Below, in pieces: positions 19,053-37,956 of a stretch of 64,000 nt of DNA. A model generated the notes under the pieces. It was not told the origin of the DNA, searched no databases, and saw only the letters and a program-made list of their open reading frames with translations. The stretch is taken from the NCBI RefSeq assembly GCF_050920415.1, contig NZ_CP169309.1. One strand, given 5' to 3'. The stretch is from Escherichia coli. GTDB lineage: Bacteria; Pseudomonadota; Gammaproteobacteria; Enterobacterales; Enterobacteriaceae. Every line of letters starts with the position of its first letter. Position 1 is the stretch's first letter. The position numbers were made by a program, and so were the translations under genes.

Positions 19053-20138
19053 GTGAAGATACTTGTTACTGGTGGCGCAGGATTTATTGGTTCTGCTGTT
19101 GTTCGTCACATAATAAATAATACGCAAGATAGTGTTGTTAATGTCGATAAATTAACCTACGCCGGAAATCTGGAATCGCTCGCTGAAATTTCTGATTCTG
19201 AACGTTATTCATTTGAGCATGCAGATATCTGTGATGCCGCAGCGATGGCTCGTATTTTTTCACAACACCAGCCAGATGCGGTAATGCACCTGGCGGCTGA
19301 GAGCCACGTTGACCGCTCAATAACTGGTCCGGCGGCATTCATTGAAACTAATATTGTAGGTACTTACGTACTTTTAGAAGCAGCGCGCAATTATTGGTCT
19401 GGTCTGGATGATGAAAAGAAAAAAAACTTTCGCTTTCATCATATTTCTACTGATGAAGTGTATGGTGACTTACCCCATCCGGATGAAGTAAATAGCAATG
19501 AAACATTGCCGTTATTTACGGAAACGACAGCATACGCGCCAAGTAGTCCATATTCTGCTTCTAAAGCGTCAAGCGATCATTTGGTTCGCGCATGGAAACG
19601 TACTTATGGTTTACCGACAATCGTGACTAATTGCTCGAACAACTATGGCCCTTATCATTTCCCGGAAAAGCTTATTCCACTGGTTATTCTTAATGCACTG
19701 GAAGGTAAGGCATTACCTATTTATGGCAAAGGAGATCAAATTCGCGACTGGTTGTATGTAGAGGATCATGCTCGTGCGCTATATACCGTAGTTACTGAAG
19801 GTAAAGCGGGTGAAACCTATAACATTGGCGGACACAACGAAAAGAAAAACATCGATGTTGTGCTGACTATTTGTGATTTGTTGGATGAGATAGTCCCGAA
19901 AGAGAAATCTTATCGTGAGCAAATTACTTATGTTGCTGATCGCCCAGGACACGATCGCCGTTATGCGATTGATGCTGAGAAGATTAGTCGCGAATTGGGT
20001 TGGAAACCACAGGAAACGTTTGAGAGCGGGATTCGGAAGACAGTAGAATGGTACCTGTCCAATACAAAATGGGTTGATAATGTGAAAAGTGGCGCCTATC
20101 AATCGTGGATTGAACAAAACTATGAGGGACGCCAGTAA
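19053..20138 (+). CDS. rmlB: dTDP-glucose 4,6-dehydratase
   Basis: 361-aa [23 protein letters not shown]...; SDR family with YxxxK; first gene after galF. Confidence 0.93.
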
Positions 20139-21037
20139 TGAATATCCTCCTATTCGGCAAAACAGGGCAGGTAGGTTGGGAACTACAGCGTGCTCTGGCA
20201 CCTCTGGGTAATTTGATTGCTCTTGATGTTCACTCCACTGATTATTGTGGTGATTTTAGTAATCCTGAAGGTGTAGCTGAAACCGTAAGAAGCATTCGGC
20301 CTGATATTATTGTCAACGCAGCCGCTCACACCGCAGTTGACAAAGCAGAATCAGAACCGGAGTTTGCACAATTACTTAACGCGACAAGTGTCGAAGCGAT
20401 TGCGAAAGCAGCCAATGAAGTCGGCTCCTGGGTTATTCACTACTCTACTGACTACGTATTTCCGGGAACCGGTGAAATACCATGGCAGGAGGCGGATGCA
20501 ACCGCACCGCTAAATGTTTACGGTGAAACCAAGTTAGCCGGAGAAAAAGCATTACAAGAGCATTGTGTGAAGCACCTTATTTTCCGGACCAGCTGGGTCT
20601 ATGCAGGTAAAGGAAATAACTTCGCCAAAACGATGTTACGTCTGGCAAAAGAGCGTGAAGAATTGGCCGTTATTAACGATCAGTTTGGTGCGCCAACAGG
20701 TGCTGAGCTGCTGGCTGATTGTACAGCACATGCCATTCGTGTCGCACTGAATAAACCAGAAGTCGCAGGCTTGTACCATTTGGTAGCCAGTGGTACCACA
20801 ACCTGGCACGATTATGCTGCGCTGGTTTTTGAAGAGGCGCGCAAAGCAGGCATTCCCCTCGCACTCAACAAACTCAATGCGGTACCAACAACAGCCTATC
20901 CTACACCAGCTCGTCGTCCACATAACTCTCGCCTTAATACAGAAAAATTTCAGCAGAACTTTGCGCTTGTCTTGCCTGACTGGCAGGTTGGCGTGAAACG
21001 CATGCTCAACGAATTATTTACGACTACAGCAATTTAA
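20138..21037 (+). CDS. rmlD: dTDP-4-dehydrorhamnose reductase
   Basis: 299-aa [23 protein letters not shown]...; start overlaps the rmlB stop. Confidence 0.92.
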   Translation: MNILLFGKTGQVGWELQRALAPLGNLIALDVHSTDYCGDFSNPEGVAETVRSIRPDIIVNAAAHTAVDKAESEPEFAQLLNATSVEAIAKAANEVGSWVIHYSTDYVFPGTGEIPWQEADATAPLNVYGETKLAGEKALQEHCVKHLIFRTSWVYAGKGNNFAKTMLRLAKEREELAVINDQFGAPTGAELLADCTAHAIRVALNKPEVAGLYHLVASGTTTWHDYAALVFEEARKAGIPLALNKLNAVPTTAYPTPARRPHNSRLNTEKFQQNFALVLPDWQVGVKRMLNELFTTTAI

Positions 21038-21094
21038 TAGTTTTTGCATCTTGTTCGTGATGGTGGAACAAGATGAATTAAAAGGAATGATGAA

Positions 21095-21970
21095 ATGAAA
21101 ACGCGTAAAGGTATTATTTTAGCAGGTGGTTCTGGTACTCGTCTTTATCCTGTGACTATGGCAGTCAGTAAACAGCTGTTACCTATTTATGATAAACCGA
21201 TGATCTATTACCCGCTCTCTACACTGATGTTGGCGGGTATTCGCGATATTCTAATTATAAGTACGCCACAGGATACTCCTCGTTTTCAACAACTGCTGGG
21301 TGACGGGAGTCAGTGGGGCCTTAATCTTCAGTACAAAGTGCAACCGAGCCCAGATGGTCTTGCGCAGGCATTTATCATCGGTAAAGAGTTTATCGGTAGT
21401 GATGATTGTGCTCTGGTTCTCGGTGATAATATCTTCTACGGTCACGATCTGCCGAAGTTAATGGATGCCGCTGTTAACAAAGAAAGTGGTGCAACGGTAT
21501 TTGCCTATCACGTTAATGATCCTGAACGCTATGGTGTCGTTGAGTTTGACAAAAACGGTACGGCAATTAGCCTGGAAGAAAAACCGCTACAGCCAAAAAG
21601 TAATTATGCGGTAACTGGGCTTTATTTCTATGATAACGACGTTGTAGAAATGGCAAAAAATCTTAAGCCATCTGCCCGAGGTGAACTGGAAATTACCGAT
21701 ATTAATCGTATCTATATGGAACAGGGGCGTTTGTCTGTCGCTATGATGGGGCGTGGTTATGCATGGCTGGATACAGGGACGCATCAAAGCCTTATTGAAG
21801 CAAGTAACTTCATTGCCACCATTGAAGAGCGTCAGGGATTAAAAGTATCTTGCCCGGAAGAGATTGCTTATCGTAAAGGGTTTATTGATGCTGAGCAGGT
21901 AAAAGTATTAGCCGAACCGCTTATCAAGAATCAATATGGTCAATATTTGCTGAAAATGATCAGCGAATAG
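21095..21970 (+). CDS. rmlA: Glucose-1-phosphate thymidylyltransferase
   Basis: 291-aa [24 protein letters not shown]... Confidence 0.93.
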
Positions 21971-21984
21971 TATGTGGGAACTCA

Positions 21985-22398
21985 ATGATGGATATTAAAT
22001 TAATCTCTTTGCAAAAACATGGGGATGAGCGTGGTGCATTAATTGCTCTTGAAGAGCAACGAAATATACCTTTCGAAGTCAAAAGAATATATTACATACT
22101 CGAGACTCTTAAGGGAGTAAGACGCGGATTTCATGCGCACAAGGTTACTCGTCAGTTAGCTATTGTAGTCAAGGGAGCTTGTAAATTTCATCTGGATAAT
22201 GGTAAAGAAACAAAGCAGGTGGAACTTAATGATCCAACAATTGCGTTGCTGATAGAACCCTATATATGGCATGAAATGTATGATTTTAGTGATGATTGTG
22301 TGCTGCTTGTAATTGCGGATGATTTCTATAAAGAGTCTGATTATATACGCAATTATGATGATTTTATTAGAAGAGTAAATTCAATTGAGAATTCATAA
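21985..22398 (+). CDS. fdtA: dTDP-4-keto-6-deoxyglucose 3,4-ketoisomerase (FdtA/QdtA-type cupin)
   Basis: 137-aa ORF; small cupin of the WxcM C-terminal/FdtA type (...RGFHAHK...WHEMYDFS...); sits between rmlA and an acetyltransferase/aminotransferase pair. Galacto- versus gluco-configured product cannot be told by eye. Confidence 0.7.
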
Positions 22399-22852
22399 GC
22401 TAAGTGACGTCCAGACAACATCAATTGGTGATGGAACAACTATCTGGCAGTTTGTTGTAATACTAAAAGGTGCTGTAATTGGTAATAATTGCAACATCTG
22501 TGCAAATACCTTGATTGAAAATAACGTTGTAATTGGTAACAATGTCACAGTCAAAAGCGGTGTGTATATTTGGGATGGCGTTAAAATAGAGGATAATGTT
22601 TTTATTGGTCCTTGTGTAGCATTTACAAATGATAAGTATCCTCGCTCTAAAGTCTATCCTGATGAATTTTTGCACACAATAATACGCAAAGGAGCATCAA
22701 TAGGTGCTAATGCAACCATCCTGCCAGGAATTGAAATTGGTGAAAAAGCAATCGTTGGTGCGGGGAGTGTCGTAACCAAAAATGTACCGCCATGCGCAAT
22801 AGTAGTAGGTAATCCAGCTCGATTTATTAAATGGGTAGAGGATAATGAATAA
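22385..22852 (+). CDS. fdtC: dTDP-3-amino-3,6-dideoxyhexose N-acetyltransferase (hexapeptide-repeat, FdtC-type)
   Basis: 155-aa ORF with left-handed beta-helix repeats ([23 protein letters not shown]...); probable TTG start at 22385 overlapping the fdtA 3' end, start uncertain. Confidence 0.7.
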
Positions 22853-23951
22853 AATTGATTTTTTAGATCTTTTTGCAATTAACCAGCGACAGCACAAAGA
22901 ATTAGTCTCTGCGTTTAGTAGGGTGCTAGATTCTGGTTGGTATATCATGGGCGAAGAACTTGAGCAGTTCGAGAAAGAGTTCGCAGAATACTGTGGAGTT
23001 AAGTATTGCATTGGTGTAGCAAATGGCCTTGATGCGTTGATACTAGTATTGAGGGCATGGAAAGAACTCGGCTATCTAGAAGACGGTGACGAGGTATTAG
23101 TACCGGCAAATACATATATTGCTTCTATTCTTGCTATAACAGAGAACAAACTTGTTCCTGTTCTTGTTGAACCAGATATAGAAACTTATAATATTAATCC
23201 TGCTTTAATTGAAAATTACATTACGGAAAAAACTAAAGCAATATTACCGGTTCACTTATATGGTCTATTGTGCAATATGCCAGAAATTAGTGCAATCGCA
23301 AGAAAATATAATCTGTTGATTCTTGAAGATTGTGCACAAGCACATGGTGCAATACGTGATGGTCGCAAAGCTGGAGCTTGGGGGGATGCTGCAGGATTTA
23401 GTTTTTATCCAGGAAAAAACCTTGGAGCTTTGGGGGATGCGGGAGCTGTTACTACAAATAATGCAGAATTATCCTCAACTATAAAAGCTTTGCGAAATTA
23501 TGGGTCACATAAGAAATATGAAAATATTTATCAGGGATTGAATAGTCGATTGGATGAACTGCAAGCAGCCTTATTGCGTGTAAAAATCCATACATTACCG
23601 GAAGATACTGCGATTCGGCAAAGGATTGCTGAAAAATATATTCGTGAAATAAAAAACCCTGCGATTACGTTACCAGTGTACGAAGGCCAAGGTGCGCACG
23701 TTTGGCATTTATTTGTAGTAAGAATCGCTAATCGTGAAAAATTCCAGTCATACTTATCAGAGAAGGGTATCCAAACCTTAATTCACTATCCATTACCACC
23801 CCATAAGCAGCAAGCATATCAAAATATGTCTAGTCTTAGCCTTCCAATTACTGAGCAAATTCATGATGAAGTCATTTCTTTACCTATAAGTCCGGTAATG
23901 AGTGAAGATGATGTCAATTATGTAATCAAAGTGGTCAATGATTACAAGTAA
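22845..23951 (+). CDS. fdtB: dTDP-3-keto-6-deoxyhexose 3-aminotransferase (DegT/DnrJ/EryC1 family, PLP-dependent)
   Basis: 368-aa ORF of DegT/ArnB aminotransferase type; context with fdtA/fdtC. Confidence 0.78.
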
Positions 23952-25213
23952 TGAAAAAATTTCTTCAGGTAACTATATTATCCGCTATCTATACATTCAT
24001 TAAAATGATTGCGGGTTTTATCATCGGTAAGGTAGTAGCAATTTATACAGGGCCATCAGGGGTAGCAATGCTTGGCCAAGTGCAAAGTTTAATCACAATA
24101 GTTGCAGGTACTACTTCTGCACCTGTAAGCACCGGTCTTGTTCGATATACTGCGGAAAATTGGCAAGAAGGACAGGAAGCATGCGCGCCATGGTGGCGCG
24201 CATGCTTAAGGGTTACTCTGTTTTTATTCTTGCTTATTATTCCCGTTGTTATTTTATTGTCGAAAAATATTAGCGAGTTACTTTTTAGCGATGGACAATA
24301 CACATGGTTAATCATTTTCGCATGTTGTATATTGCCATTCTCCATTTTAAATACATTGATCGCTTCAGTTTTAAATGGTCAACAATTCTATAAGCAATAT
24401 ATATTGGTTGGGATGTTTTCTGTATTCATTTCTACTATGTTTATGATTTTGTTGATTGTAGCTTATAATCTTAAAGGTGCATTGATTGCCACGGCTATAA
24501 ATAGTGCTATTGCTGGTCTTGTATTAGTTTTATTTTGTCTCAATAAATCTTGGTTTAGATTTAAATATTGGTGGGGTAAAACGGATAAAGACAAAATTAT
24601 AAAAATTATTCATTATACTCTGATGGCTTTGGTTTCTGTTATCTCCATGCCTACAGCATTGATGTGTATTAGAAAAATATTGATTGCTAAAACTGGTTGG
24701 GAGGATGCAGGGCAATGGCAGGCCGTATGGAAGATATCTGAGGTCTATCTTGGTGTTGTGACAATTGCTTTGTCAACATATTTCTTACCAAGATTGACAA
24801 TTATAAAAACAAGTTTCCTTATAAAAAAAGAGGTAAATAGTACTATATTATACATAGTATCTATTACTTCATTCATGGCGTTGAGTATCTATTTATTCCG
24901 CGATTTGGTAATAACAGTTTTATTTACTGAACAGTTTCGCTCAGCTCGTGAATTATTTTTGTTACAACTCGTAGGGGATGTAATAAAAATTGCTGGTTTT
25001 CTTTATGCATACCCTCTTCAAAGTCAGGGGCATACTAAACTATTCATCAGTTCAGAAGTGATTTTTTCTATGCTCTTTATCGTTACCACCTATATTTTTG
25101 TTGTAAATTATGGAGTACATGGTGCTAACATAAGTTATGTCATTACATATAGTTTATATTTTGTGTTTGCATTTGTGTTTACTAATTTTATTAATGTCAG
25201 AAGAATTAATTAA
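23951..25213 (+). CDS. wzx: O-antigen flippase Wzx
   Basis: 420-aa, about 12-TM, AT-rich membrane protein immediately after the sugar-nucleotide genes. Confidence 0.8.
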   Translation: MKKFLQVTILSAIYTFIKMIAGFIIGKVVAIYTGPSGVAMLGQVQSLITIVAGTTSAPVSTGLVRYTAENWQEGQEACAPWWRACLRVTLFLFLLIIPVVILLSKNISELLFSDGQYTWLIIFACCILPFSILNTLIASVLNGQQFYKQYILVGMFSVFISTMFMILLIVAYNLKGALIATAINSAIAGLVLVLFCLNKSWFRFKYWWGKTDKDKIIKIIHYTLMALVSVISMPTALMCIRKILIAKTGWEDAGQWQAVWKISEVYLGVVTIALSTYFLPRLTIIKTSFLIKKEVNSTILYIVSITSFMALSIYLFRDLVITVLFTEQFRSARELFLLQLVGDVIKIAGFLYAYPLQSQGHTKLFISSEVIFSMLFIVTTYIFVVNYGVHGANISYVITYSLYFVFAFVFTNFINVRRIN

Positions 25214-25222
25214 AAACAGAGG

Positions 25223-26278
25223 TTGAAATTGAAAATAATTATACCTGTCTTAGGATTTGGCAGGGCTGGTGGTGAAAGAGTTCTTTCTAAGCTGGCAACT
25301 GAATTGATGAATTATGGACATGATGTAAGTTTTGTTGTTCCAGATAATAGAACTAATCCATATTATGCTACCACAGCAAAAATCGTCACGAGTAAATCTA
25401 GTCAAAACCGTGTAAAAATATTGAGAATCATTAAAAATTACTATAATCTGTGGCGTAAATGCATAGAATTAAATCCTGATGCTGTAGTTGCTAGTTTTCA
25501 TTTGACTGCCTATCTTGTCGCATTATTACCAATCACCCGTCGTAAGAAATATTATTATATTCAGGCGTATGAAGTTAATTTTTTTGATAATATAATATGG
25601 AAATTAATAGCGGGTTTAACATATTATTTACCGCTTAAAAAAATACTAAATAGTCCTAATTTGCTTCCTCATAAACATGATGATTTTATAGGAGTAGTTC
25701 CTGCAGGAGTAGATTTAAACGTTTTCTATCCGAAACCATCAAATAGGTTATTAAATGGTCACACATCAATAGGGATTATTGGTAGAAAAGAGAAGCACAA
25801 AGGAACTAGCGAAATTATTTCAGTATTGTGTTCACTGGAAAATAAAGTTGGAATTATAATTAATATTGCGATCTATCTTGAAGAAGTTGATAAGGAGCGT
25901 TTAATTGCTGCCGGGTTTCAGGTTAATTTTTTTCCGATTACTTCTGATTTAGAATTGGCATCTTTTTATCGAAGCAATGACATCATGATTGCAGCTGGGT
26001 TAATTGAAGATGGCGCTTTCCATTATCCTTGTGCTGAATCAATGGCTTGTGGTTGTCTTGTTATTTCAAATTATGCGCCACTTACTGAAACTAACAGTGT
26101 ACTTAAATTAGTCAAGTTTGATGCTTGCAAACTTGGTAAAGCAATTAATCTTTGTCTCAATCTTGACCTAGAAGAAAAAAGCAAAGAAATCCAATCTAAT
26201 ATTTCTGTGTTGAATAAATATGACTGGAAAATTGTTGGTGAAACTTTCAATAGTTTATTGTTAGATGCAAATAAATAG
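25223..26278 (+). CDS. O-antigen glycosyltransferase (GT1/GT4-like)
   Basis: About 350-aa ORF with non-ATG start (TTG at 25223 or 25229; AGAGG RBS at 25217-25221 favours 25229); N-terminus KIIIPVLGFGRAGGERV... typical of GT4-like transferases. Confidence 0.7.
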   Translation: MKLKIIIPVLGFGRAGGERVLSKLATELMNYGHDVSFVVPDNRTNPYYATTAKIVTSKSSQNRVKILRIIKNYYNLWRKCIELNPDAVVASFHLTAYLVALLPITRRKKYYYIQAYEVNFFDNIIWKLIAGLTYYLPLKKILNSPNLLPHKHDDFIGVVPAGVDLNVFYPKPSNRLLNGHTSIGIIGRKEKHKGTSEIISVLCSLENKVGIIINIAIYLEEVDKERLIAAGFQVNFFPITSDLELASFYRSNDIMIAAGLIEDGAFHYPCAESMACGCLVISNYAPLTETNSVLKLVKFDACKLGKAINLCLNLDLEEKSKEIQSNISVLNKYDWKIVGETFNSLLLDANK

Positions 26279-26298
26279 TATACGTTGATGGGGAAAAT

Positions 26299-26856
26299 AT
26301 GAATATTGTTAAAACTGATATTCCAGATCTGATCGTTCTTGAACCAAAAGTGTTTAGTGATGAACGCGGCTTTTTTATGGAGAGTTATAATCAGATTGAA
26401 TTTGAGAAGACAATAGGAAGGCACGTAAATTTTGTTCAGGATAATCATTCAAAATCTAGTAAAGGCGTACTACGTGGGTTACATTATCAATTAGCACCGT
26501 ATGCACAGGCTAAATTAGTTCGATGTGTTGTAGGTCAGGTATTTGATGTTGCTGTTGATCTTAGAAAAAATTCACCAACGTTCAAAAAATGGTTTGGAAT
26601 AACCCTTTCCGCAGAAAATAAACGACAATTATGGATACCTGAAGGATTTGCTCATGGTTTCTTGGTGACCAGTGATGAAGCTGAGTTCATTTATAAAACA
26701 ACGAACTACTATGCTCCTGGTCATCAGCAAGCAATTATTTACAATGATCCTATTTTAAACATCGATTGGCCTTTCTGCAGTAGTGCTCTGTCATTATCGC
26801 AAAAAGATCAAGAAGCAAAATTATTTTCAGAATTATTGGACAGTGAACTGTTCTAA
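26299..26856 (+). CDS. rmlC: dTDP-4-dehydrorhamnose 3,5-epimerase
   Basis: 185-aa ORF MNIVKTDIPDLIVLEPKVFSDERGFFMESYN...; canonical RmlC cupin; separated from rmlBDA. Confidence 0.92.
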   Translation: MNIVKTDIPDLIVLEPKVFSDERGFFMESYNQIEFEKTIGRHVNFVQDNHSKSSKGVLRGLHYQLAPYAQAKLVRCVVGQVFDVAVDLRKNSPTFKKWFGITLSAENKRQLWIPEGFAHGFLVTSDEAEFIYKTTNYYAPGHQQAIIYNDPILNIDWPFCSSALSLSQKDQEAKLFSELLDSELF

Positions 26857-26923
26857 TAAAGTGTGCCACCTTATCCGTCTGAAGGATAGGTGGTTGCTTA
26901 TATTTTTTGAGTATGTTTGTATA

Positions 26924-27886
26924 ATGACAGAAAATAGTCCGAAATATAAACACGATAAAAGCTTAATAAGTTTTATCTACTTATTTTTTATATTTACACT
27001 TATTGTAGGCTTCATTATCGCAAATACCCAGTTTTTGGGGCGAAGTAGAGACTATGATAATTATATACAGATCTTTTCTGGTGAAGAAGGGGAGGGGGTT
27101 CTTGAATTATTTTATCGCGGATTGATGTTAATAACGACCAGCTATGAAATTATCATTTTTATAATTTTAACATGTTCTTTTTTTATAAAGGCAAGGTTTC
27201 TTGCTAACTATTCGCGTAATTTTTCAGGCTTGACCTTATTCTTTGTTTATTATGCAAGCGTTGCACTTTGGGTTTTAGATTATACTCAATTCAGAAATGG
27301 TCTATGTATTTCCATTTTAATGTTTTCCGTATACTATTTATTTATAAATAAACCGACTTATTTTTATTTCTCGCTATTATGTGCAATTGCAACTCATTGG
27401 TCTGCTTTGCCTTTTTTGCTTTTATATCCTTTTGTCTATTCAAAAAAAATAAGACACCTTGGTTATTTTTGTTTCAGTATTCTTGTTTTGATTGCGATCT
27501 CAGGAGAAGGAAAAGAGATCATTTCTTTTATAAGAAATTTTGGAGTGGGACAAAAAATAGGAAACGAAGCTGGTGTAAATTTAATAAATTCATTATCCCT
27601 TACCGCTATTTTCTGGTTTGTTATTAGTTACATATCAAGCATTGGAAATGAAAGGAGAAATTTAAGACTTTTCTTTTGTTATGGTGTCATGCAATACGTG
27701 ACTTTTAGCCTTTTCTCTCTACCTGTTATGGCTTTCCGTATTTTGGAAATGTATTTTTTCCTTATGTTAACCATTGGGGTGTTTATTAAGCAAAAAAAGA
27801 ATTATTATTTTGTTTTTTGCAAAGTGTTAATTTTATTGTATCTAACATACTATTATCATATGGTTTTTGGAGTGATTAATGTGTAA
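26924..27886 (+). CDS. wzy: O-antigen polymerase Wzy
   Basis: Listed ORF starts at 26783; ATG at 26924 (MTENSPKYKHDKSLISFIYLFF...) gives about 320 aa; very AT-rich, multi-TM, with a large predicted loop. Confidence 0.7.
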   Translation: MTENSPKYKHDKSLISFIYLFFIFTLIVGFIIANTQFLGRSRDYDNYIQIFSGEEGEGVLELFYRGLMLITTSYEIIIFIILTCSFFIKARFLANYSRNFSGLTLFFVYYASVALWVLDYTQFRNGLCISILMFSVYYLFINKPTYFYFSLLCAIATHWSALPFLLLYPFVYSKKIRHLGYFCFSILVLIAISGEGKEIISFIRNFGVGQKIGNEAGVNLINSLSLTAIFWFVISYISSIGNERRNLRLFFCYGVMQYVTFSLFSLPVMAFRILEMYFFLMLTIGVFIKQKKNYYFVFCKVLILLYLTYYYHMVFGVINV

Positions 27887-28766
27887 GGCTAAGGTGTTGG
27901 CTATAATTGTTACTTACAACCCGGAAATTATTCGTTTGACGGAATGTATTAACTCTTTAGCCCCACAAGTTGAGAGAATAATTCTTGTAGATAATGGCTC
28001 AAATAATAGTCATTTGATAAAAAATATCATTATTAATAACCTTGAAATTATTTTGCTTTCGGAAAACAAAGGCATTGCATTTGCTCAGAACCATTGTGTT
28101 AAGAAGGGTCTGGAAGCAAAAGAGTTTGACTATTTATTTTTCTCAGATCAGGATACTTGCTTTCCTAGCGATGTTATTGAAAAACTTAAGAGTACATTTA
28201 CGAAAAATAATAAAAAAGGTAAAAATGTTGCTTGTGCTTCTCCTTTTTTTAAAGACCATCGTTCAAATTATATGCATCCGTCAGTCAGCCTAAATATTTT
28301 TACGAGTACAAAAGTTATATGTAGTGAAGTAGACGATGATCTTTATCCCTCGCATGTTATTGCTTCTGGGATGTTAATGTCTCGCGAGGCATGGCGCGTC
28401 GTCGGACCATTTTGTGAAAAACTCTTTATAGACTGGGTTGATACAGAATGGTGTTGGCGTGCATTAGCTAATAGTATGATTATTGTTCAGACACCATCAG
28501 TCATCATTTCTCATGAACTTGGGTATGGGCAGAAAATTTTTGCTGGTCGATCTGTTACAATACATAATTCTTTCAGAAATTTTTATAAAATACGTAATGC
28601 AATATACTTAATGCTGCATTCAAATTATAGCTTCAAGTATCGTTATCATGCTTTTTTTCATGCGACAAAGAATATTGTATTTGAAATTTTATATTCGAAA
28701 GAAAAATTAAATTCACTGAAGGTTTGTTTTAAAGCTGTACGTGATGGTATGTTCAATAATTTTTAA
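27879..28766 (+). CDS. O-antigen glycosyltransferase, GT2 family (probable rhamnosyltransferase)
   Basis: 295-aa ORF; N-terminus LAIIVTYNPE...VDNGSNNS and a DxD-like region (FFSDQDT) typical of GT2. Confidence 0.72.
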   Translation: MCKAKVLAIIVTYNPEIIRLTECINSLAPQVERIILVDNGSNNSHLIKNIIINNLEIILLSENKGIAFAQNHCVKKGLEAKEFDYLFFSDQDTCFPSDVIEKLKSTFTKNNKKGKNVACASPFFKDHRSNYMHPSVSLNIFTSTKVICSEVDDDLYPSHVIASGMLMSREAWRVVGPFCEKLFIDWVDTEWCWRALANSMIIVQTPSVIISHELGYGQKIFAGRSVTIHNSFRNFYKIRNAIYLMLHSNYSFKYRYHAFFHATKNIVFEILYSKEKLNSLKVCFKAVRDGMFNNF

Positions 28767-28796
28767 TACAAAAATAGTTAGGCTCAAGGTGTTTAA

Positions 28797-29873
28797 ATGG
28801 AAGAAAATAATATGAAGACGGTCGCTGTAGTTGGCACAGTGGGTGTTCCTGCTTGTTATGGTGGGTTTGAATCACTTGTTCAGAATCTAATTGATTATCA
28901 ATCTGATGGTATACAATATCAGATATTTTGCTCTTCAAAAAAATATAATAAAAAATTAAAAAATTATAAAAATGCAGAATTAATCTATTTGCCGATAAAT
29001 GCCAATGGCGTCTCTAGCATAATTTATGACATTATGTGTTTAATTATTTGTTTATTCAAAAGGCCAGATGTTGTTTTAATATTGGGGGTATCTGGTTGTT
29101 TATTTCTACCAATTTATAAACTATTTTCAAAATCAAAGATCATTGTCAACATCGATGGGCTTGAATGGCGTAGAAATAAATGGGGAACGTTTGCTAAGAA
29201 ATTTCTCAAAATATCTGAGGCGATATCTATTAGAATAGCTGATATTATCATTTCAGATAATCAAGCAATAGCTGATTATGTGGAAAATAAGTACAATAAA
29301 AAAAGCGTAGTTATAGCTTATGGGGGAGATCATGCTACTAATCTTAGTACACCGATAGACGATGATCAAAAAAAAGATGGTTATTATTTGGGGCTTTGTA
29401 GGATAGAGCCTGAGAATAATATAGAAATGATTTTGAATGCCTTCATTAATACAGATAAAAAAATTAAATTTATGGGTAATTGGGATAATAGCGAGTATGG
29501 GCGCCAGCTAAAAAAATATTATTCAAACTATCCAAATATCACACTACTAGAACCTAACTATAATATCGAAGAACTTTATAAACTAAGAAAAAATTGCCTT
29601 GCATACATTCATGGACACTCGGCTGGTGGAACAAACCCTTCTTTAGTTGAAGCGATGCATTTTAATATTCCTATTTTTGCTTTCGATTGTGACTTTAATC
29701 GTTACACAACTAATAATTTAGCTCATTACTTTAATGATTCTGAACAACTGACCTCATTAGCAGACAGTTTGTCTTTTGGAAATCTTAAATGTCAAGTATT
29801 AGATTTAAAAAAATATGCTGAAGATATGTATAACTGGAGGCATATAGCTGCTATGTATGAATCTATTTATTAA
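28797..29873 (+). CDS. O-antigen glycosyltransferase (GT1-like)
   Basis: 358-aa ORF (alternative start MKTVAVVG at 28812); GT1-like C-terminal motifs; last gene of the O-unit block. Confidence 0.68.
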   Translation: MEENNMKTVAVVGTVGVPACYGGFESLVQNLIDYQSDGIQYQIFCSSKKYNKKLKNYKNAELIYLPINANGVSSIIYDIMCLIICLFKRPDVVLILGVSGCLFLPIYKLFSKSKIIVNIDGLEWRRNKWGTFAKKFLKISEAISIRIADIIISDNQAIADYVENKYNKKSVVIAYGGDHATNLSTPIDDDQKKDGYYLGLCRIEPENNIEMILNAFINTDKKIKFMGNWDNSEYGRQLKKYYSNYPNITLLEPNYNIEELYKLRKNCLAYIHGHSAGGTNPSLVEAMHFNIPIFAFDCDFNRYTTNNLAHYFNDSEQLTSLADSLSFGNLKCQVLDLKKYAEDMYNWRHIAAMYESIY

Positions 29874-30039
29874 ACGCATTAACAATAATATAATTGACCT
29901 TATATAGCTATCAGAGTAAAAATGTAACGCTGATTTTTTTGTTAAATGATGCGCATTATATATTTAATGATTAAAATACTCTTGATCAAATAAAACTATT
30001 TAATTAATAATGTAAAATTTCATTATGCTATTTAAGATG

Positions 30040-30108
30040 TGAAAAATAACTTAAATAAATGATGGGATATATTTATATTATCCCGGTTATAGACAAGCCC
30101 AGGGAAAG
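30040..30108 (+). repeat. Degenerate duplicate of the 5' end of the H-repeat (ISAs1) transposase gene
   Basis: 30057-30108 (aaatgatgggatatatttatattatcccggttatagacaagcccagggaaag) is about 85% identical to 30257-30308 inside the transposase ORF; the ATG equivalent is mutated. Confidence 0.6.
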
Positions 30109-30244
30109 ATCATCAGAAGTACACTTTTTGTACTAAATAATTCGCATTTTATGTTTAAAAATATGAGATATTCCTCATTACCTGAAGCTGTTTTTTATTG
30201 CTTATACATGATCAAATACTCCTTACATAATTAAGGAGAACAAA

Positions 30245-31381
30245 ATGGAACTTAAAAAATTGATGGAACATATTTCTATTATCCCCGATTACAGACAAGC
30301 CTGGAAAGTGGAACATAAATTATCGGATATTCTACTGTTGACTATTTGTGCCGTCATTTCTGGTGCAGAAGGCTGGGAAGATATAGAGGATTTTGGAGAA
30401 ACACATCTCGATTTTTTGAAGCAATATGGTGATTTTGAAAATGGTATTCCTGTTCACGATACCATTGCCAGAGTTGTATCCTGTATCAGTCCTGCAAAAT
30501 TTCACGAGTGCTTTATTAACTGGATGCGAGATTGCCATACTTCAGATGATAAAGACGTCATCGCAATTGATGGAAAAACACTCCGGCATTCTTATGACAA
30601 GAGTCGCCGTAAGGGAGCGATTCATGTCATTAGTGCGTTCTCAACAATGCACAGTCTGGTCATCGGACAGATCAAGACGGATGAGAAATCCAATGAGATT
30701 ACAGCCATCCCTGAACTTCTTAACATGTTGGATATTAAAGGGAAAATTATCACAACTGATGCGATGGGTTGCCAGAAAGATATTGCAGAGAAGATACAAA
30801 AACAGGGAGGTGATTATTTATTCGCTGTAAAAGGAAATCAGCGTCGGCTTAATAAAGCCTTTGAAGAAAAATTCCCACTGAAAGAATTAAATAATCCAGA
30901 GCATGACAGTTATGCAATTAGTGAAAAGAGTCACGGCAGAGAAGATATCCGTCTTCATATTGTTTGCGATGACCCTGATGAACTTATTGATTTCACGTTT
31001 GAATGGAAAGGACTGAAAAAATTATGCGTGGCAGTCTCCTTTCGCTCAATAATAGCAGAGCAAAAGAAAGAGCCCGAAATGATGGTCAGATATTATATCA
31101 GTTCTGCTGATTTAACCGCTGAGAAGTTTGCGACAGCGATTTGAAATCACTGGCACGTGGAGAATAAGCTGCACTGGCGTCTGGACGTGGTAATGAATGA
31201 AGACGATTGTAAAATAAGAAGAGGAAATGCAGCAGAATTATTTTCTGGGATACGGCACATTGCTATTAATATTTTGACGAATGATAAGGTATTCAAGACA
31301 GGATTAAGACGTAAGATGCGAAAAGCAGCCATGGACAGAAACTATCTCGCGTCAGTCCTTGCGGGGAGCGGGCTTTACTAG
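30245..31381 (+). mobile_element. ISAs1-family (H-repeat-associated) transposase gene interrupted by a single in-frame TGA (pseudogene)
   Basis: 299-aa ORF (30245-31144) and 74-aa ORF (31157-31381) are in the same frame, separated only by TGA at 31142-31144; the combined about 378-aa product has the ISAs1 motif ...[21 protein letters not shown]... with the stop at a conserved Arg position. Confidence 0.8.
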
Positions 31382-31453
31382 TCCTTCCTCGCTCAGTGAC
31401 AGAATATTGAATGAATAGCATTAAAATTATTAAATAATATGGTTTAATTCGAC

Positions 31454-33081
31454 ATGAACTTTAAGAATATAATTAGAATAATACTACCTTTTTTTATTTT
31501 CTTGAGTATTTTACTTTACTCAGGAAGGGCGGATAGTGTTTTGTTATTTACTATCGAATACACACTTGCAAGTATGGCAATCTTTCTGATAAAAAGAAAG
31601 TTTATAAGCAATATCTTGTGGGGGATTTATCTCTCAATTTTAGGTGTACAGGCAGCATCGCTATTTAGTTCAGGACAATATTTGATGCCTCTTGCCTTGT
31701 CGAATGCTGCAGAAGTTGAATCGCTAGGCATTGGCGAGGTAATCAAGGTTTTTTCTATTTTTATTTTATTTGTTATAGTTTCATTCGTTACGATGCCTTC
31801 TGGTGCTCTAGTCGGCCGTATTAAATATTATAAATTTAATTTTTTCTGTATAGTATTATTGCTTGTGTGTTCTTTCATAAGCACGGGACCGGTATATGCT
31901 TTTTATGAAACAGCAAAATTGTACTATTTACAGCAAACCTTTAAGCCTAGTGAGAAGATCGGTGATGCCGGGAAATCTTTTTTAAAAACAAGTGTTTTTA
32001 TTAACCCTCTACAGAATAACAACAACTTCAAAGGGCGTAATGTTATTGTAATCTTTGCTGAGGGATTTTCATCGGAGATTATTGGTAATTCAAAAATGGC
32101 GCATTTTCCAATTACGCCTAATTTAGATAAGTTATCTACTGAAGCACTAAGTTTTAAAAATTATTATAACCATACAGCAGTAACCTTTCGAGGTTTAAGA
32201 GGCCAGTTAACTTCTGGCTATCAATTTCGTGATGGGTTAACTGATGCTGGTACTGGTATTGCACAATTATCTAACGTAGAAATTAATAATATTTATCTTC
32301 ATCGTCAAACATCTTTGCCGAATATATTGAAAGAGTATGGCTATAAAAGTTATTTTATAGCGTCTACAGAAAAAATAGCCCACTCAACACTATGTTGAAA
32401 ACGCTTAATTTTGATAAAGTTCTTGGTATGGGAGATTTTATTGGTTATCAACGCGACAGAATGACTGATAAGCAAACATTTAATGCACTGCAATATTTTT
32501 TACGTTCTCAAGAAAATAAAAACGAACGCTTTTTTATTGGTGTGTACCCATCTGGTACTCATCATGGTCAAGATAGTCCAAATGAAAAATATTTTGATGG
32601 TAGCAATCCTCTCTACAATAAATTCTATAACTATGATTTTCAGTTGGGGAAGTTTGTTGATTTTTTTCGGCGCAGTTCATTTTATGGCAATACGTTGTTG
32701 ATAATTACATCGGATCATTCTACATTTCCTTCGACAGAATATAAGAAATCATTTAACAGCGATTCTCGTTATTTTGTGGACAAAATACCATTTCTGATCA
32801 TTGGGAAAAATATTACGCCTGAAGTTTTAGATGCAGGAGGTGAAAATTCTTTAAGTTTCGCGCCAACAATATTGCACATGTTAGGGATTCAGTATTCAAT
32901 GAATTATTTTTTGGGGTGTTCTCTTTTTGATAAGACGTGCACATCACCATTCTCACATCTTTCTGCTATTGGTAGTGATTATTTCAATACAGGCAAAGAA
33001 AATCATGTTGAACTAATTCAAAATAATAGTGGTAATGAATTAATAAAATTAGCCGAACGTTTTTATAACATTAGTGGCTAA
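31454..33081 (+). pseudogene. Sulfatase/alkaline-phosphatase-superfamily membrane enzyme (LtaS/phosphoglycerol- or phosphoethanolamine-transferase-like), frameshifted
   Basis: 314-aa ORF (31454-32398) has N-terminal TM helices then a sulfatase-like domain (NVIVIFAEGFSSE...); the domain continues in another frame as a 229-aa ORF (32392-33081; ...LLIITSDHSTFPS...); frame change lies near an A6 run at 32370-32375. Confidence 0.6.
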
Positions 33082-33215
33082 ATATAAAAATGTACAAGTT
33101 ACAAGCAATTTCCTAATTAGGAAATATATGACTGTAAAAGAAGATATAAATTAAGCTATTCTTTATCTTCAATAAGCCGCAACCCCGCGGTGATCACCCC
33201 TGACAGGAGTAAACA

Positions 33216-34622
33216 ATGTCAAAGCAACAGATTGGCGTAGTCGGTATGGCAGTGATGGGGCGCAACCTTGCGCTCAACATCGAAAGCCGTGGTTATACCG
33301 TCTCTATTTTCAACCGTTCCCGTGAGAAGACGGAAGAAGTGATTGCCGAAAATCCAGGCAAAAAACTGGTTCCTTACTATACGGTGAAAGAGTTTGTTGA
33401 ATCTCTGGAAACGCCTCGTCGCATCCTGTTAATGGTGAAAGCAGGTGCAGGCACGGATGCTGCTATTGATTCCCTCAAGCCATACCTCGATAAAGGTGAC
33501 ATCATCATTGATGGTGGTAATACCTTCTTCCAGGACACCATTCGTCGTAACCGTGAGCTTTCTGCCGAAGGCTTTAACTTTATCGGTACCGGTGTCTCCG
33601 GTGGTGAAGAAGGTGCGCTGAAAGGTCCTTCCATTATGCCTGGTGGCCAGAAAGAAGCCTATGAACTGGTTGCACCGATCCTGACCAAAATCGCCGCCGT
33701 TGCTGAAGACGGCGAGCCATGCGTTACCTATATTGGTGCCGATGGTGCTGGCCACTATGTGAAGATGGTTCATAACGGTATTGAATACGGCGATATGCAG
33801 CTGATTGCTGAAGCCTATTCACTGCTTAAAGGTGGCCTGAGCCTCACCAACGAAGAACTGGCTCAGACCTTTACCGAGTGGAATAACGGTGAACTAAGCA
33901 GCTACCTGATCGACATCACCAAAGATATCTTCACCAAAAAAGATGAAGACGGTAACTACCTGGTTGATGTGATTTTGGATGAAGCAGCAAACAAAGGTAC
34001 AGGCAAATGGACCAGCCAGAGTGCGCTAGATCTCGGCGAACCGCTGTCGCTGATTACCGAGTCTGTGTTTGCACGTTATATCTCTTCTCTGAAAGATCAG
34101 CGTGTTGCCGCATCTAAAGTTCTCTCTGGCCCGCAAGGACAGCCAGCAGGCGACAAGGCTGAGTTCATCGAAAAAGTTCGCCGTGCGCTGTATCTTGGCA
34201 AAATCGTTTCTTACGCTCAGGGCTTCTCTCAGCTGCGTGCTGCGTCTGAAGAGTACAACTGGGATCTGAACTACGGCGAAATCGCGAAGATTTTCCGTGC
34301 TGGCTGCATCATTCGTGCGCAGTTCCTGCAGAAAATCACCGATGCTTATGCCGAAAATCCGCAGATCGCTAACCTGTTGCTGGCTCCTTACTTCAAGCAA
34401 ATTGCCGATGACTACCAGCAGGCGCTGCGTGATGTCGTTGCTTATGCAGTACAAAATGGTATCCCGGTTCCGACCTTCGCTGCTGCGGTTGCCTATTATG
34501 ATAGCTACCGTGCCGCTGTTTTGCCTGCGAACCTGATCCAGGCACAGCGTGACTATTTCGGTGCGCATACTTATAAGCGCATTGATAAAGAAGGTGTGTT
34601 CCATACCGAATGGCTGGATTAA
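33216..34622 (+). CDS. gnd: 6-phosphogluconate dehydrogenase, decarboxylating
   Basis: 468-aa [33 protein letters not shown]...; canonical Gnd; 3' flank of the O-antigen locus. Confidence 0.97.
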
Positions 34623-34647
34623 TCTGATTTAACCAACAATAAATTGA

Positions 34648-34679
34648 AGCCCGGCGTGTATTGCGCCGGTTTTTTTTTG
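34648..34679 (+). terminator. Rho-independent terminator downstream of gnd
   Basis: GC-rich hairpin gaagcccggcgtgtattgcgccgg followed by a T9 run. Confidence 0.7.
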
Positions 34680-34859
34680 CCGATTATCTTATAGACTAAA
34701 TTTCACTGCTTAATATTAACTTAATAAATATCAGCTATTCTTATAAAGAAAATCTGAATTGTTTTTTGTTGCGTTGACCATCTGACAACGTAGCGTTAAA
34801 ACTTTTAGCTCTTATCAGGATGCTAAAAACATCATGATTCACAGTTAAGTTAATTCTGA

Positions 34860-36035
<1,176 letters not shown>

Positions 36036-36181
36036 CATCCTGTTATCAGGGCGATTTTCGCCCTGATTCTCTCATGTTCCCTTTGTAATAATTCATTATT
36101 TTTATCATTTATCCTATAGCATTCATGGCGATTATCGCTAAACTATGGCGACTTAAAATTATTTCGTCCGTTAGGGTAATG

Positions 36182-37159
36182 ATGAGAGTAGAAAATAATA
36201 ATGTTTCTGGGCAAAACCATGACCCGGAACAGATTGATTTGATTGATTTACTGGTCCAACTATGGCGTGGCAAGATGACAATCATCATTTCTGTCATTGT
36301 GGCTATAGCTCTGGCTATTGGATATTTGGCAGTAGCGAAGGAGAAATGGACGTCAACAGCAATTATCACTCAGCCCGATGTGGGGCAAATTGCTGGCTAT
36401 AACAATGCCATGAATGTTATCTATGGTCAGGCTGCACCGAAAGTATCGGATTTGCAGGAGACGTTAATTGGTCGCTTCAGTTCTGCCTTCTCTGCATTAG
36501 CAGAAACGCTGGATAATCAGGAAGAACCAGAAAAACTTACCATCGAACCTTCTGTTAAGAACCAGCAATTACCATTGACTGTTTCTTATGTTGGGCAAAC
36601 TGCAGAGGGCGCACAAATGAAGTTGGCCCAATACATTCAGCAAGTTGACGATAAAGTGAATCAAGAGCTAGAAAAGGATCTCAAGGACAACATTGCTCTG
36701 GGACGGAAAAACTTGCAGGACTCTTTAAGAACACAGGAAGTGGTTGCGCAGGAACAGAAAGATCTGCGTATCCGTCAGATTCAGGAAGCGTTGCAGTATG
36801 CGAATCAGGCGCAGGTGACAAAGCCACAAGTTCAGCAGACTGAAGATGTGACACAAGATACGTTGTTCCTTTTGGGGAGCGAAGCGCTGGAGTCGATGAT
36901 TAAGCACGAGGCGACCCGTCCGTTGGTGTTCTCGCCAAACTACTATCAGACTCGTCAAAACCTGCTGGATATCGAAAACTTAAAGGTTGATGATCTTGAT
37001 ATTCATGCTTACCGTTATGTGATGAAACCGACGTTACCTATTCGTCGCGATAGCCCGAAAAAGGCAATTACCTTGATTCTGGCGGTGCTGCTGGGCGGCA
37101 TGGTTGGCGCGGGGATTGTGCTGGGGCGTAACGCGCTGCGTAATTACAACGCGAAATAA
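36182..37159 (+). CDS. wzzB: O-antigen chain-length determinant Wzz (polysaccharide co-polymerase)
   Basis: Listed ORF starts at 36125; ATG at 36182 (MRVENNNVSGQNHDPEQIDLIDLL...) gives 325 aa (36179 alternative); TM-periplasmic coiled coil-TM architecture. Confidence 0.9.
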   Translation: MRVENNNVSGQNHDPEQIDLIDLLVQLWRGKMTIIISVIVAIALAIGYLAVAKEKWTSTAIITQPDVGQIAGYNNAMNVIYGQAAPKVSDLQETLIGRFSSAFSALAETLDNQEEPEKLTIEPSVKNQQLPLTVSYVGQTAEGAQMKLAQYIQQVDDKVNQELEKDLKDNIALGRKNLQDSLRTQEVVAQEQKDLRIRQIQEALQYANQAQVTKPQVQQTEDVTQDTLFLLGSEALESMIKHEATRPLVFSPNYYQTRQNLLDIENLKVDDLDIHAYRYVMKPTLPIRRDSPKKAITLILAVLLGGMVGAGIVLGRNALRNYNAK

Positions 37160-37180
37160 TATTATTGTGCATTTAAGAGA

Positions 37181-37217
37181 AACGGGCAGGGTGGTGACAC
37201 CATGCCCGTTTTTTTTG
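37181..37217 (+). terminator. Rho-independent terminator downstream of wzzB
   Basis: Hairpin aaacgggcagggtggtgacaccatgcccgtttttttt. Confidence 0.7.
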
Positions 37218-37300
37218 CCGGATGCGATGCTGGCGCATCTTATCCGGCCTACGTGTGTTGAGATAATGTGTAGGCACGATAAGCTTGCGCATCGGGCAAT
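37218..37300. repeat. REP (repetitive extragenic palindromic) elements between wzzB and hisI
   Basis: gccggatgcgatgctggcgcatcttatccggcctac and tgtaggcacgataagcttgcgcatcgggca match the E. coli REP consensus family. Confidence 0.65.
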
Positions 37301-37344
37301 GGCTCCGGGTGTGACAACAACATCACACCTGCTCAGCCCGCAAC

Positions 37345-37949
37345 TCACTGATGCCGTTTACGCAGGTTCTCAATTACCGTCGTTAAATCCAGATCCTGAT
37401 CCTGCAACAGCACCAGCAGGTGATACATCAAATCAGACGCCTCGTTGGTCAGCTCAAAGCGGTCATGTACCGTTGCTGCCAGTGCGGTTTCCACGCCTTC
37501 TTCGCCCACTTTCTGCGCAATGCGTTTAGTGCCGCTGGCATACAGTTTGGCGGTGTAAGAGGTTTCCGGGTCGGCAGATTTCCGTTCGGCGAGCAGTTGT
37601 TCCAGTTGATACAGGAACAGCCACTGGTGAGCGGTGTTGCCGAAGCAGCTGTTGGTGCCTTTGTGGCAGGTCGGGCCGATGGGATTCGCCAGCACCAGCA
37701 ATGTGTCGTTGTCGCAGTCCGGCGCAATGCTCACTACGTCGAGGAAATTGCCGGACGTTTCACCTTTGGTCCACAGTCGCTGTTTAGTGCGCGAGAAGAA
37801 GGTGACTTTGCCGCTTTCGATGGTTTTGTCCAGAGCTTCCGGATTCATATAGCCCAGCATTAGCACTTCGCCGGATACCGCGTGTTGAACAATTACCGGC
37901 ATCAATCCGTCGGTTTTTTCCCAGTCCAGTTCGCGACGTTGTTGTTCTG

Positions 37950-37956
<7 letters not shown>
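37345..37956 (-). CDS. hisI: Bifunctional phosphoribosyl-AMP cyclohydrolase / phosphoribosyl-ATP pyrophosphatase
   Basis: 203-aa [28 protein letters not shown]...; last gene of the his operon. Confidence 0.95.

Follow-up and report, generated by a model that had tools for sequence, protein, structure and literature searches.

An inherited frameshift in wekS, last gene of an Escherichia coli O2/O50 O-antigen cluster, and the possible role of the intact enzyme as a periplasmic phosphotransferase

A stretch of 64,000 nucleotides from Escherichia coli (contig NZ_CP169309.1; this entire stretch is referred to below as 'the window') contains a complete O-antigen cluster of the O2/O50 type, at the end of which two overlapping open reading frames (ORFs) stand where a single gene is found in most related strains. 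The two ORFs are the halves of wekS, the last gene of that cluster, and the allele is almost certainly a stably inherited pseudogene in the process of decay, as opposed to a sequencing error or one state of an on/off switch, judging from comparison of its sequence with those of its relatives. Our overall reading, which we favour with some reservation, is that wekS has become a pseudogene in this strain and that its intact counterpart is a periplasmic enzyme that would transfer a phospho-group to the O-antigen.

The disrupted gene and its products

The initial annotation, made from the window's letters alone, had described overlapping ORFs of 314 and 229 amino acids and had read them as one gene of about 540 codons, broken at a run of A residues; both the ORFs and the break are present as it described them. 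The corresponding features are:

31454..32398, + strand: ORF1, 5' fragment of wekS, 314 amino acids
32392..33081, + strand: ORF2, 3' fragment of wekS, 229 amino acids as listed
32370..32375, + strand: A6 homopolymer, an inactivating 1-bp deletion relative to A7
32181, + strand: C to T, giving A243V, inside the catalytic motif
32321, + strand: G to A, giving D290N, a second lineage-specific non-synonymous change relative to the closest intact allele

Compared with the intact PSUO2 gene (542 amino acids, annotated as an 'LTA synthase family protein'), the window shows one indel and 12 substitutions in the alignment, the indel being located where PSUO2 reads GAAAAAAAT (A7) and the window reads GAAAAAAT (A6). 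In all intact alleles examined the A7 tract forms the codons GAA AAA AAT (E-K-N), and the insertion of one A into the window's sequence restores a protein of 542 amino acids. ORF1 contains the membrane domain, with five transmembrane (TM) segments, and the N-terminal half of the catalytic domain, with E203, N239-H240-T241 and T244, and ends with 6 out-of-frame codons and a stop. The wekS frame proper picks up directly after the A tract in ORF2, which harbors H370, D421-H422 and the C-terminal beta-sheet domain and which contains neither a TM segment nor a signal peptide.

As predicted from these sequences, the product of ORF1 is a membrane-anchored stump with half of an active site (E203 and T241 retained, H370 and D421/H422 missing), and the product of ORF2, if it is translated, is a cytoplasmic C-terminal piece without an export signal. 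The enzyme is thus off in this strain, as the sequence shows, because the frameshifted gene can give rise only to these two non-functional products. Two mechanisms that might rescue a full-length protein were considered and rejected: programmed frameshifting, on the reasoning that in the zero frame A6 and its flanks do not spell a canonical X XXY YYZ heptamer, and transcriptional slippage, for which six A's are judged, from general knowledge, to be too short a template for RNA polymerase.

Inheritance of the frameshift

The initial annotation had left three causes of the break side by side (decay, a sequencing error and slipped-strand phase variation) and had proposed a comparison with other strains. 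A megablast search of 5,426 complete E. coli genomes identified the wekS region in 161 of them, on the chromosome each time; the majority possess one base more than the window and encode a single coding sequence of 542 amino acids, such that most genomes that carry the region carry an intact allele. Two independent complete genomes, those of MFDS1022581 and N96, carry the 1751-bp region with 100% identity. Exact-sequence look-ups in a collection of approximately 15 billion proteins returned the window's 314-residue product from 36 contigs of several sources, the 229-residue product from 80 contigs, the N-terminal fragment of a PSUO2-type haplotype from 226 contigs and the intact protein from at least 1000 contigs, with both window products having been deposited from assemblies of NCBI, ENA and Logan. 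An exact look-up of the window protein in its conceptually repaired form found no copy in that collection.

The closest intact allele, found in Escherichia sp. HH41S and in one E. coli (L019/L020), is separated from that of the window by exactly three differences, namely the 1-bp deletion, A243V and D290N, with no synonymous change among them. Among the family alignment and the protein sets that were examined, V243 is confined to the frameshifted product; Ala243 is otherwise invariant in a 33-member family alignment (34-93% identity), and in more distant relatives the same position is occupied by Ala, except for Pro in one Butyrivibrio sequence. Since the haplotype is encountered only in its frameshifted form and carries two replacements, one of them in the catalytic motif, we regard it as an inherited pseudogene that has started to drift.

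The suspicion that the frameshift is an artefact of sequencing or assembly, and that the gene is really intact, arises from the fact that homopolymer indels are typical of long-read errors and that some O2 assemblies contain other suspicious frameshifts: among complete O2 genomes, the annotation gives a frameshifted wzy for PSUO2 and C 237-04 and a frameshifted wzx for PG20180057. These frameshifts in O2-typed strains may themselves be homopolymer errors of long-read assemblies, and such annotations call for caution when natural frameshifts are counted from complete genomes alone. For the window, however, the identity of the region in two independent genomes, the recovery of its exact products from 36 and 80 contigs of separate archives, and the linkage of the frameshift to two private substitutions that never occur in an intact copy leave an artefact barely credible.

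A further alternative is that the A tract acts as a contingency locus, in which slipped-strand switching between A7 and A6 would vary the O-antigen surface. The lesion does sit at a homopolymer, and at least three O-cluster haplotypes carry A6, in chromosomal backgrounds that differ (the window type; SCU-101 and C 237-04; HCP4S3_I4; PG20180057). Moreover, the two allele classes of wekS both retain A7 despite a dS of 0.5, and the frequency of A6 is unequal between them: a short query across the tract found A6 in 7 of 63 records (six strains) of the 99%-identity class, leaving 56 without it, against 0 of 84 in the other (Fisher p = 0.002). That same zero, in a class that is 88% identical and bears the same A7 tract, is difficult to reconcile with programmed switching, as is the length of the tract, which at 7 bases is shorter than those usually tied (as a matter of general knowledge) to high-rate switching. 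Eight T-runs of 6-7 bases within wekS (two of them T7) have not been hit recurrently. The window haplotype exists only as A6 (36 contigs), with two later replacements, which is compatible with one old event without reversion, and no intact, reverted version of it is on record. The sole within-lineage pair consists of NGF1, which is intact, and PG20180057, in which A6 is accompanied by a wzx frameshift relative to the near-identical NGF1 and may be an assembly error.

Phase variation is accordingly very improbable, and of the three proposed causes it is decay that stands. The presence of A6 on several haplotypes and backgrounds identifies the tract as a mutational hot spot, and other strains carry other wekS lesions (an IS1 insertion, a truncation and further indels). 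We conclude that the loss of wekS is a recurrent and ordinary loss of function, not a programmed switch.

Protein architecture and enzyme class

The membrane topology and catalytic features of WekS were assigned on the repaired protein of 542 amino acids, and correspond to the following positions in the window:

31454..31879, + strand: membrane domain, residues 1-142, five predicted TM helices
32036..32889, + strand: periplasmic alkaline-phosphatase-fold (Pfam Sulfatase) domain, residues 195-479, interrupted by the frameshift
32168..32206, + strand: catalytic motif N239-Q251, NHTAATFRGLRGQ in the family and NHTAVTFRGLRGQ in the window

The repaired protein matches the Pfam Sulfatase family (PF00884) with E = 2.8e-26 across residues 195-479, covering model positions 1-301 of 301; this was the only family returned by the Pfam scan, which detected no EptA_B_N (PF08019) or BcsG domain. 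An AlphaFold model (predicted local distance difference test score, pLDDT, 81.5) consists of five N-terminal helices and an alpha/beta domain, in keeping with the architecture proposed at the outset, with TM helices at residues 3-22, 26-44, 49-73, 93-112 and 126-142 and with hydropathy in agreement. Basic residues at the N-terminus and in loops 45-48 and 113-125 would place these segments in the cytoplasm, and the positive-inside rule gives an N-in, C-out orientation. The periplasmic loop between TM3 and TM4 (residues 74-92) is acidic and conserved, with N84 and G92 invariant in the family and E87 nearly so; Q66 and S69, within TM3, are also family-invariant.

The core of the catalytic motif, NHTAATFRG, contains residue 243, and E203, T241, T244, H370 and D421-H422 are invariant in 33 homologues. 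T241 and T244 are both candidates for the nucleophile, and the profile alignment favors T241. The formylglycine motif [CS]x[PA]xR is not found in WekS by a regular-expression search, and a threonine occupies the nucleophile region. When a profile of the 33 homologues was compared with the PDB, the leading match was VP1736 of Vibrio parahaemolyticus, followed by Bacillus subtilis LtaS and by Listeria LtaP and LtaS, all of which came before any sulfatase; the profile aligns E203, T241, H370 and D421-H422 with what we take, in LtaS numbering, to be the metal and nucleophile positions of that enzyme. The assignment to an LtaS/OpgB-like group in preference to true sulfatases is therefore upheld, and WekS is, as far as sequence and model can define it, an LtaS-type, threonine-dependent enzyme of the phosphotransferase fold and not a sulfatase. 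That the intact protein acts as a periplasmic LtaS-type phosphotransferase is, on the same grounds, a probable assignment.

A non-transferase role must be weighed against this assignment. WekS might be a hydrolase that cleaves off a substituent, acting as a phosphodiesterase or a sulfatase, or it might be a non-catalytic regulator that binds lipid or lipopolysaccharide (LPS) in the manner of YejM/PbgA, which has the same combination of five TM helices and a sulfatase fold; public annotations include 'arylsulfatase' and 'sulfatase-like hydrolase/transferase', and no product of WekS is on record. However, the full catalytic set (Glu, Thr, His and Asp-His) is invariant across the family, while YejM is without key residues of that set; the lack of a formylglycine motif excludes a classical sulfatase; and the conserved membrane-loop motif suggests a lipid donor. 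We consider a non-transferase role improbable.

Comparison with characterized systems

The name wekS originates from O2 strain G1674 (PMC5293828), and one paper has called the product a glycosyltransferase without evidence (PMC4013041). Both the gene and its split annotation are already public in RefSeq. The literature on wekS was found to comprise its naming and its use as a PCR target, with no experiment on WekS found; a review of E. coli O-antigens mentions neither wekS, nor a sulfatase, nor phosphoethanolamine; and a literature search for a characterized LtaS-like modifier of O-antigens in Gram-negative bacteria found none.

LtaS and LtaP of Staphylococcus, Listeria and Bacillus share with WekS the five N-terminal TM helices, the extracytoplasmic alkaline-phosphatase-fold domain, and the alignment of the threonine nucleophile and of the Glu, His and Asp-His positions. 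They differ in that the identity is only 17-19%, and in that the host of WekS is Gram-negative and makes no lipoteichoic acid; since wekS lies in an O-antigen cluster, its product would be a decoration and not a chain of poly-glycerol-phosphate. WekS also has traits of its own, in the form of the invariant motif NHTAATFRGLRGQ and the conserved TM3-TM4 loop.

OpgB (MdoB) is likewise an enzyme of the inner membrane in a Gram-negative host; it has its sulfatase-fold domain in the periplasm and moves glycerol-phosphate from phosphatidylglycerol to a periplasmic glycan. The best NCBIfam match of WekS is to this phosphoglycerol transferase I (NF009027), at 32.6 bits against a cut-off of 572, and WekS is consequently not a member of the OpgB family; the OpgB profile is also longer (703 positions), and OpgB is a core-genome gene product that acts on osmoregulated glucans. 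VP1736 (PDB 3lxq), the best PDB match by sequence, is an uncharacterized structural-genomics target and thus provides no functional information. EptA, MCR-1, BcsG and Lpt-O belong to the same superfamily and share its general mechanism (a Thr or Ser nucleophile, a phospholipid donor and a periplasmic acceptor), and Lpt-O modifies the O-antigen of Shigella flexneri. WekS differs from EptA, MCR-1 and BcsG in its lack of an EptA_B_N or BcsG Pfam domain; phosphoethanolamine is nonetheless a possible alternative as the group that it transfers.

The best functional analogy is offered by GacH and SccH, LtaS-family membrane enzymes that are also encoded within a rhamnose-polysaccharide cluster. GacH is larger than WekS and has more TM helices. 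The modification made by GacH and SccH, in which sn-glycerol-1-phosphate is attached to a sugar of the side chain outside the membrane, is partial and was long overlooked, and a review has pointed out that such groups 'could be ... lost during extraction and purification' (PMC9574508).

Genomic setting, selection and synteny

The O2/O50-type cluster of the window is arranged in the order rmlB-rmlD-rmlA-fdtA-fdtC-fdtB-wzx-GT4-rmlC-wzy-GT2-DUF1972 GT (GT, glycosyltransferase), after which come an ISAs1 (H-repeat) transposase gene interrupted by an internal stop, and then wekS, gnd, ugd, wzz and the his operon. The neighbors of wekS are:

28797..29873, + strand: DUF1972 glycosyltransferase, the final glycosyltransferase of the O2 cluster
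30245..31381, + strand: ISAs1-family (H-repeat) transposase pseudogene, internal stop at 31142-31144
33216..34622, + strand: gnd, the right-hand neighbor of every enterobacterial wekS-family gene examined

As the initial annotation had noted, wekS follows the H-repeat and immediately precedes gnd, has a low G+C content (32.9%, compared with 33.4% for the O2-specific genes and 47.4% for the whole window) and, as the comparison supports, is not part of the K-12 locus. In O2 the ISAs1 element stands between the last glycosyltransferase gene and wekS. Since the syntenic clusters of Citrobacter, Salmonella, Enterobacter, Rahnella and E. coli O51 lack this element, it is taken to have been inserted later between the two genes. 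The ISAs1 transposase is intact (378 amino acids) in PSUO2, NGF1 and SCU-101.

The ORF pair is no chance arrangement, as intact orthologues are present on more than 1000 contigs. The two allele classes are 12% apart at the nucleotide level, with dS of about 0.5 and dN/dS = 0.13, and the catalytic motifs and the motif of the TM3-TM4 loop are conserved from the Enterobacterales to the Xanthomonadales, Treponema, Bacteroidales and Firmicutes. By these sequence measures the wekS family is clearly under selection.

Clusters that contain rmlBDAC in Salmonella enterica, Citrobacter braakii, Enterobacter asburiae and Rahnella aquatilis end, just before gnd, with a homologue of 43-64% identity, which is preceded by little or no spacer and by no insertion sequence (IS). 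The Citrobacter braakii cluster retains the full O2-like gene order, including wekS, with uniform divergence and no IS. In E. coli O51 a wekS homologue is again last before gnd, in the same arrangement as the Salmonella locus; we take the latter to be O57, because its gene order matches that of O51 and the O-antigens of E. coli O51 and Salmonella O57 have been reported to be identical (PMC7685785). In an O1-variant cluster and in O10 of E. coli, wekS also adjoins gnd.

More distant homologues were surveyed at 80 diverse loci, using one genome per species and counting rml genes within 10 kb. Such genes were found at 20 of the 80, including loci of Stenotrophomonas, Pseudomonas, Lactobacillaceae and Streptococcus, which is approximately 50-fold above a rough expectation of about 0.5% (an estimate that assumes one rml operon per 4-Mb genome). 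In Stenotrophomonas, Pseudomonas delhiensis and Pseudoxanthomonas (L041, L045, L048, L052, L055), family members are located 2-5 kb from an rmlBACD operon; the O-antigens of Xanthomonadales and Pseudomonas groups are often rhamnans.

In Streptococcus zalophi (L075 1440-12311) a WekS-family gene occupies the gacH slot of a rhamnopolysaccharide cluster of the group A carbohydrate (GAC) type, in the order rmlD, beta-1,4-rhamnosyltransferase, gacC-like GT, ABC transporter, two ORFs (one GT-like), WekS-like and gacI-like. Its product (524 amino acids) is 29% identical to WekS and bears the same catalytic motifs; it displays no sequence match to GacH and is not a GacH orthologue, and the arrangement suggests a non-orthologous replacement. 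A similar case occurs in S. pacificus (L068). The streptococcal counterpart of the DUF1972 glycosyltransferase family scores as a beta-1,4-rhamnosyltransferase, Cps2T/GacB.

The proposed reaction and its acceptor

In the mechanism that we propose, intact WekS would reside in the inner membrane by virtue of five TM helices, with its LtaS-type domain facing the periplasm, where, as the analogy with LtaS, GacH and OpgB suggests, its catalytic threonine would most likely accept a phospho-head-group from a membrane phospholipid. The leading candidate for the donated group is sn-glycerol-1-phosphate, from phosphatidylglycerol. The head-group would then be passed to a glycan hydroxyl after export, the most likely acceptor, on grounds of synteny, being the rhamnose-containing O-antigen produced by the adjacent genes, either on undecaprenyl diphosphate (Und-PP) or after ligation. 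A modification that is partial or labile would explain its absence from published structures.

The individual parts of this proposal carry different weights. The gene lies between galF and gnd, is co-oriented with its neighbors, shares their base composition and is syntenically conserved, all of which argue that it belongs to the O-antigen cluster; whether the O-antigen is the acceptor we regard as an evenly balanced matter. Glycerol-phosphate as the group transferred, which draws on the analogy with LtaS, GacH and OpgB, is a tentative choice, slightly less likely than not. The proposal in its fullest form, in which enzymes of the WekS family decorate rhamnose-containing O-antigens in the periplasm with a partial or labile phospho-head-group, sn-glycerol-1-phosphate from phosphatidylglycerol being the likeliest, and in which that group has been missed in O2, O50 and O51/O57 and probably also in the O1 variant and O10, is speculative and must be called doubtful.

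A number of observations weigh against the reading of WekS as an O-antigen phosphotransferase. The published repeat units of O2, O50 and O51/O57 contain no phosphate-linked substituent (PMC7685785, PMC11672820; the O51/O57 unit was read from a glycan-array paper), and wekS accounts for no feature of these structures. Natural wekS knock-outs are common, at about 10% of genomes, which points to dispensability. The homologues of Serratia and Methylobacillus stand alone, outside any polysaccharide cluster. O2 strains with 97-99.6% identity across their central O2 genes have wekS alleles that are 12% apart, and similar wekS alleles serve the O2, O1-variant and O10 clusters; this difference in divergence and this sharing of alleles mark wekS as a gnd-linked module, recombining together with the gnd flank, more than as a serogroup-specific gene. 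The LtaS residues that contact glycerol-phosphate, which we take to be H347, W354 and R356 in S. aureus numbering, face I302, S309 and L311 in WekS (by HMMER, in a segment of low identity), and since these contacts are not conserved in the alignment the head-group cannot be assigned with confidence. Finally, the Acinetobacter baumannii gene pgt1, a predicted phosphoglycerol transferase gene at the edge of a surface-polysaccharide locus that is likened here to wekS by description and not by sequence, belongs to a capsule locus and not to an O-antigen cluster; it is variably present at the K locus, the corresponding group is absent from solved structures, and it has no detectable effect on capsule structure (PMC9676051).

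Much of this evidence would equally suit a periplasmic phosphotransferase with another acceptor, such as osmoregulated periplasmic glucans (OPG), enterobacterial common antigen (ECA), core-lipid A or capsule, for which wekS would be a passenger of the recombination-prone rfb-gnd junction. The phosphate-free O-antigen structures, the stand-alone homologues, the divergence history unlike that of the central O2 genes, and the allele sharing between serogroups can all be read in this way, as can the best curated family match, to an enzyme of periplasmic glucans, and the 60 of 80 diverse loci with no nearby rml gene. The Serratia quinivorans homologue (L016 10001-11578; 36-38% identity) lies between the fieF/pfkA region and cpxP-cpxRA, and a link to envelope-stress control is conceivable in that genus. 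However, homologues of at least 43% identity end the O-antigen operon in the five enterobacterial genera that were examined, often after a spacer of a few bases and with no IS; the G+C content of wekS matches that of the O-unit genes; Citrobacter preserves the O2-like order and its uniform divergence; and both the linkage to rml across phyla and the family member in the streptococcal gacH slot point to rhamnose polysaccharides. A different acceptor is, on this evidence, unlikely, and the O-antigen reading is the one that we retain: the initial suggestion of an O-antigen phospho-substituent transferase is plausible and is strengthened by conserved synteny, but it is at odds with the phosphate-free structures of O2, O50 and O51/O57.

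Other features of the cluster

When the window (19053-37956) is compared with three other loci (L001, L003, L004), the cluster appears as a mosaic: identity among O2 strains is 97-99.6% for the block from fdtC to the DUF1972 glycosyltransferase, identity between allele classes is 88-89% for wekS, and the values for rmlBDA, gnd, ugd and wzz range from 83% to 96%. These values imply that the central block is flanked on either side by recombination breakpoints, one of which lies at or near ISAs1. The spacer between wekS and gnd contains a perfect 14-bp palindrome, TTCCTAATTAGGAA, at window positions 33110-33123, and a promoter and terminator scan of 29800-33300 returned counts equal to the shuffle expectation.

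Within the central block, fdtC (22385-22852) is an intact ORF for a hexapeptide-repeat acetyltransferase of 155 amino acids with a TTG start, in a stretch that RefSeq splits into two pseudogene fragments in all of the O2 genomes inspected; that annotation is probably an artefact of the unusual start codon. Residue 305 of FdtB (23757-23759) is Ser in the window and Leu in six other O2 strains (L305S, a private change). The His-to-Arg change in FdtB that has been reported as a marker of O50 relative to O2 was not seen in the window or in the six O2 strains compared.

Significance

In itself the finding in the window is an ordinary one: an accessory gene, already named and annotated, is present as an inherited loss-of-function allele. 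Of wider consequence is the mismatch between genetics and chemistry that it brings to light, in which a strongly conserved LtaS-type enzyme under purifying selection is encoded in the rhamnose O-antigen clusters of at least five enterobacterial genera, and none of the corresponding polysaccharide structures that were checked shows a product of WekS. The precedent of GacH demonstrates that such a group can escape notice for decades, and the natural A6 alleles are ready-made controls for testing the role of WekS.

If the proposed modification exists, O2 strains would be split into modified and unmodified subtypes, with approximately one in ten complete genomes of the allele class being natural knock-outs that create hidden differences of charge and epitope within one serogroup; surface charge, and interactions with phage and with antimicrobial peptides, could then differ between strains of the same serogroup. 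O2 is a component of conjugate vaccines against extraintestinal pathogenic E. coli (ExPEC), and recombinant O2 glycoconjugates might miss a native epitope. The activity of WekS would then represent a Gram-negative counterpart of the GacH modification of the streptococcal group A carbohydrate.

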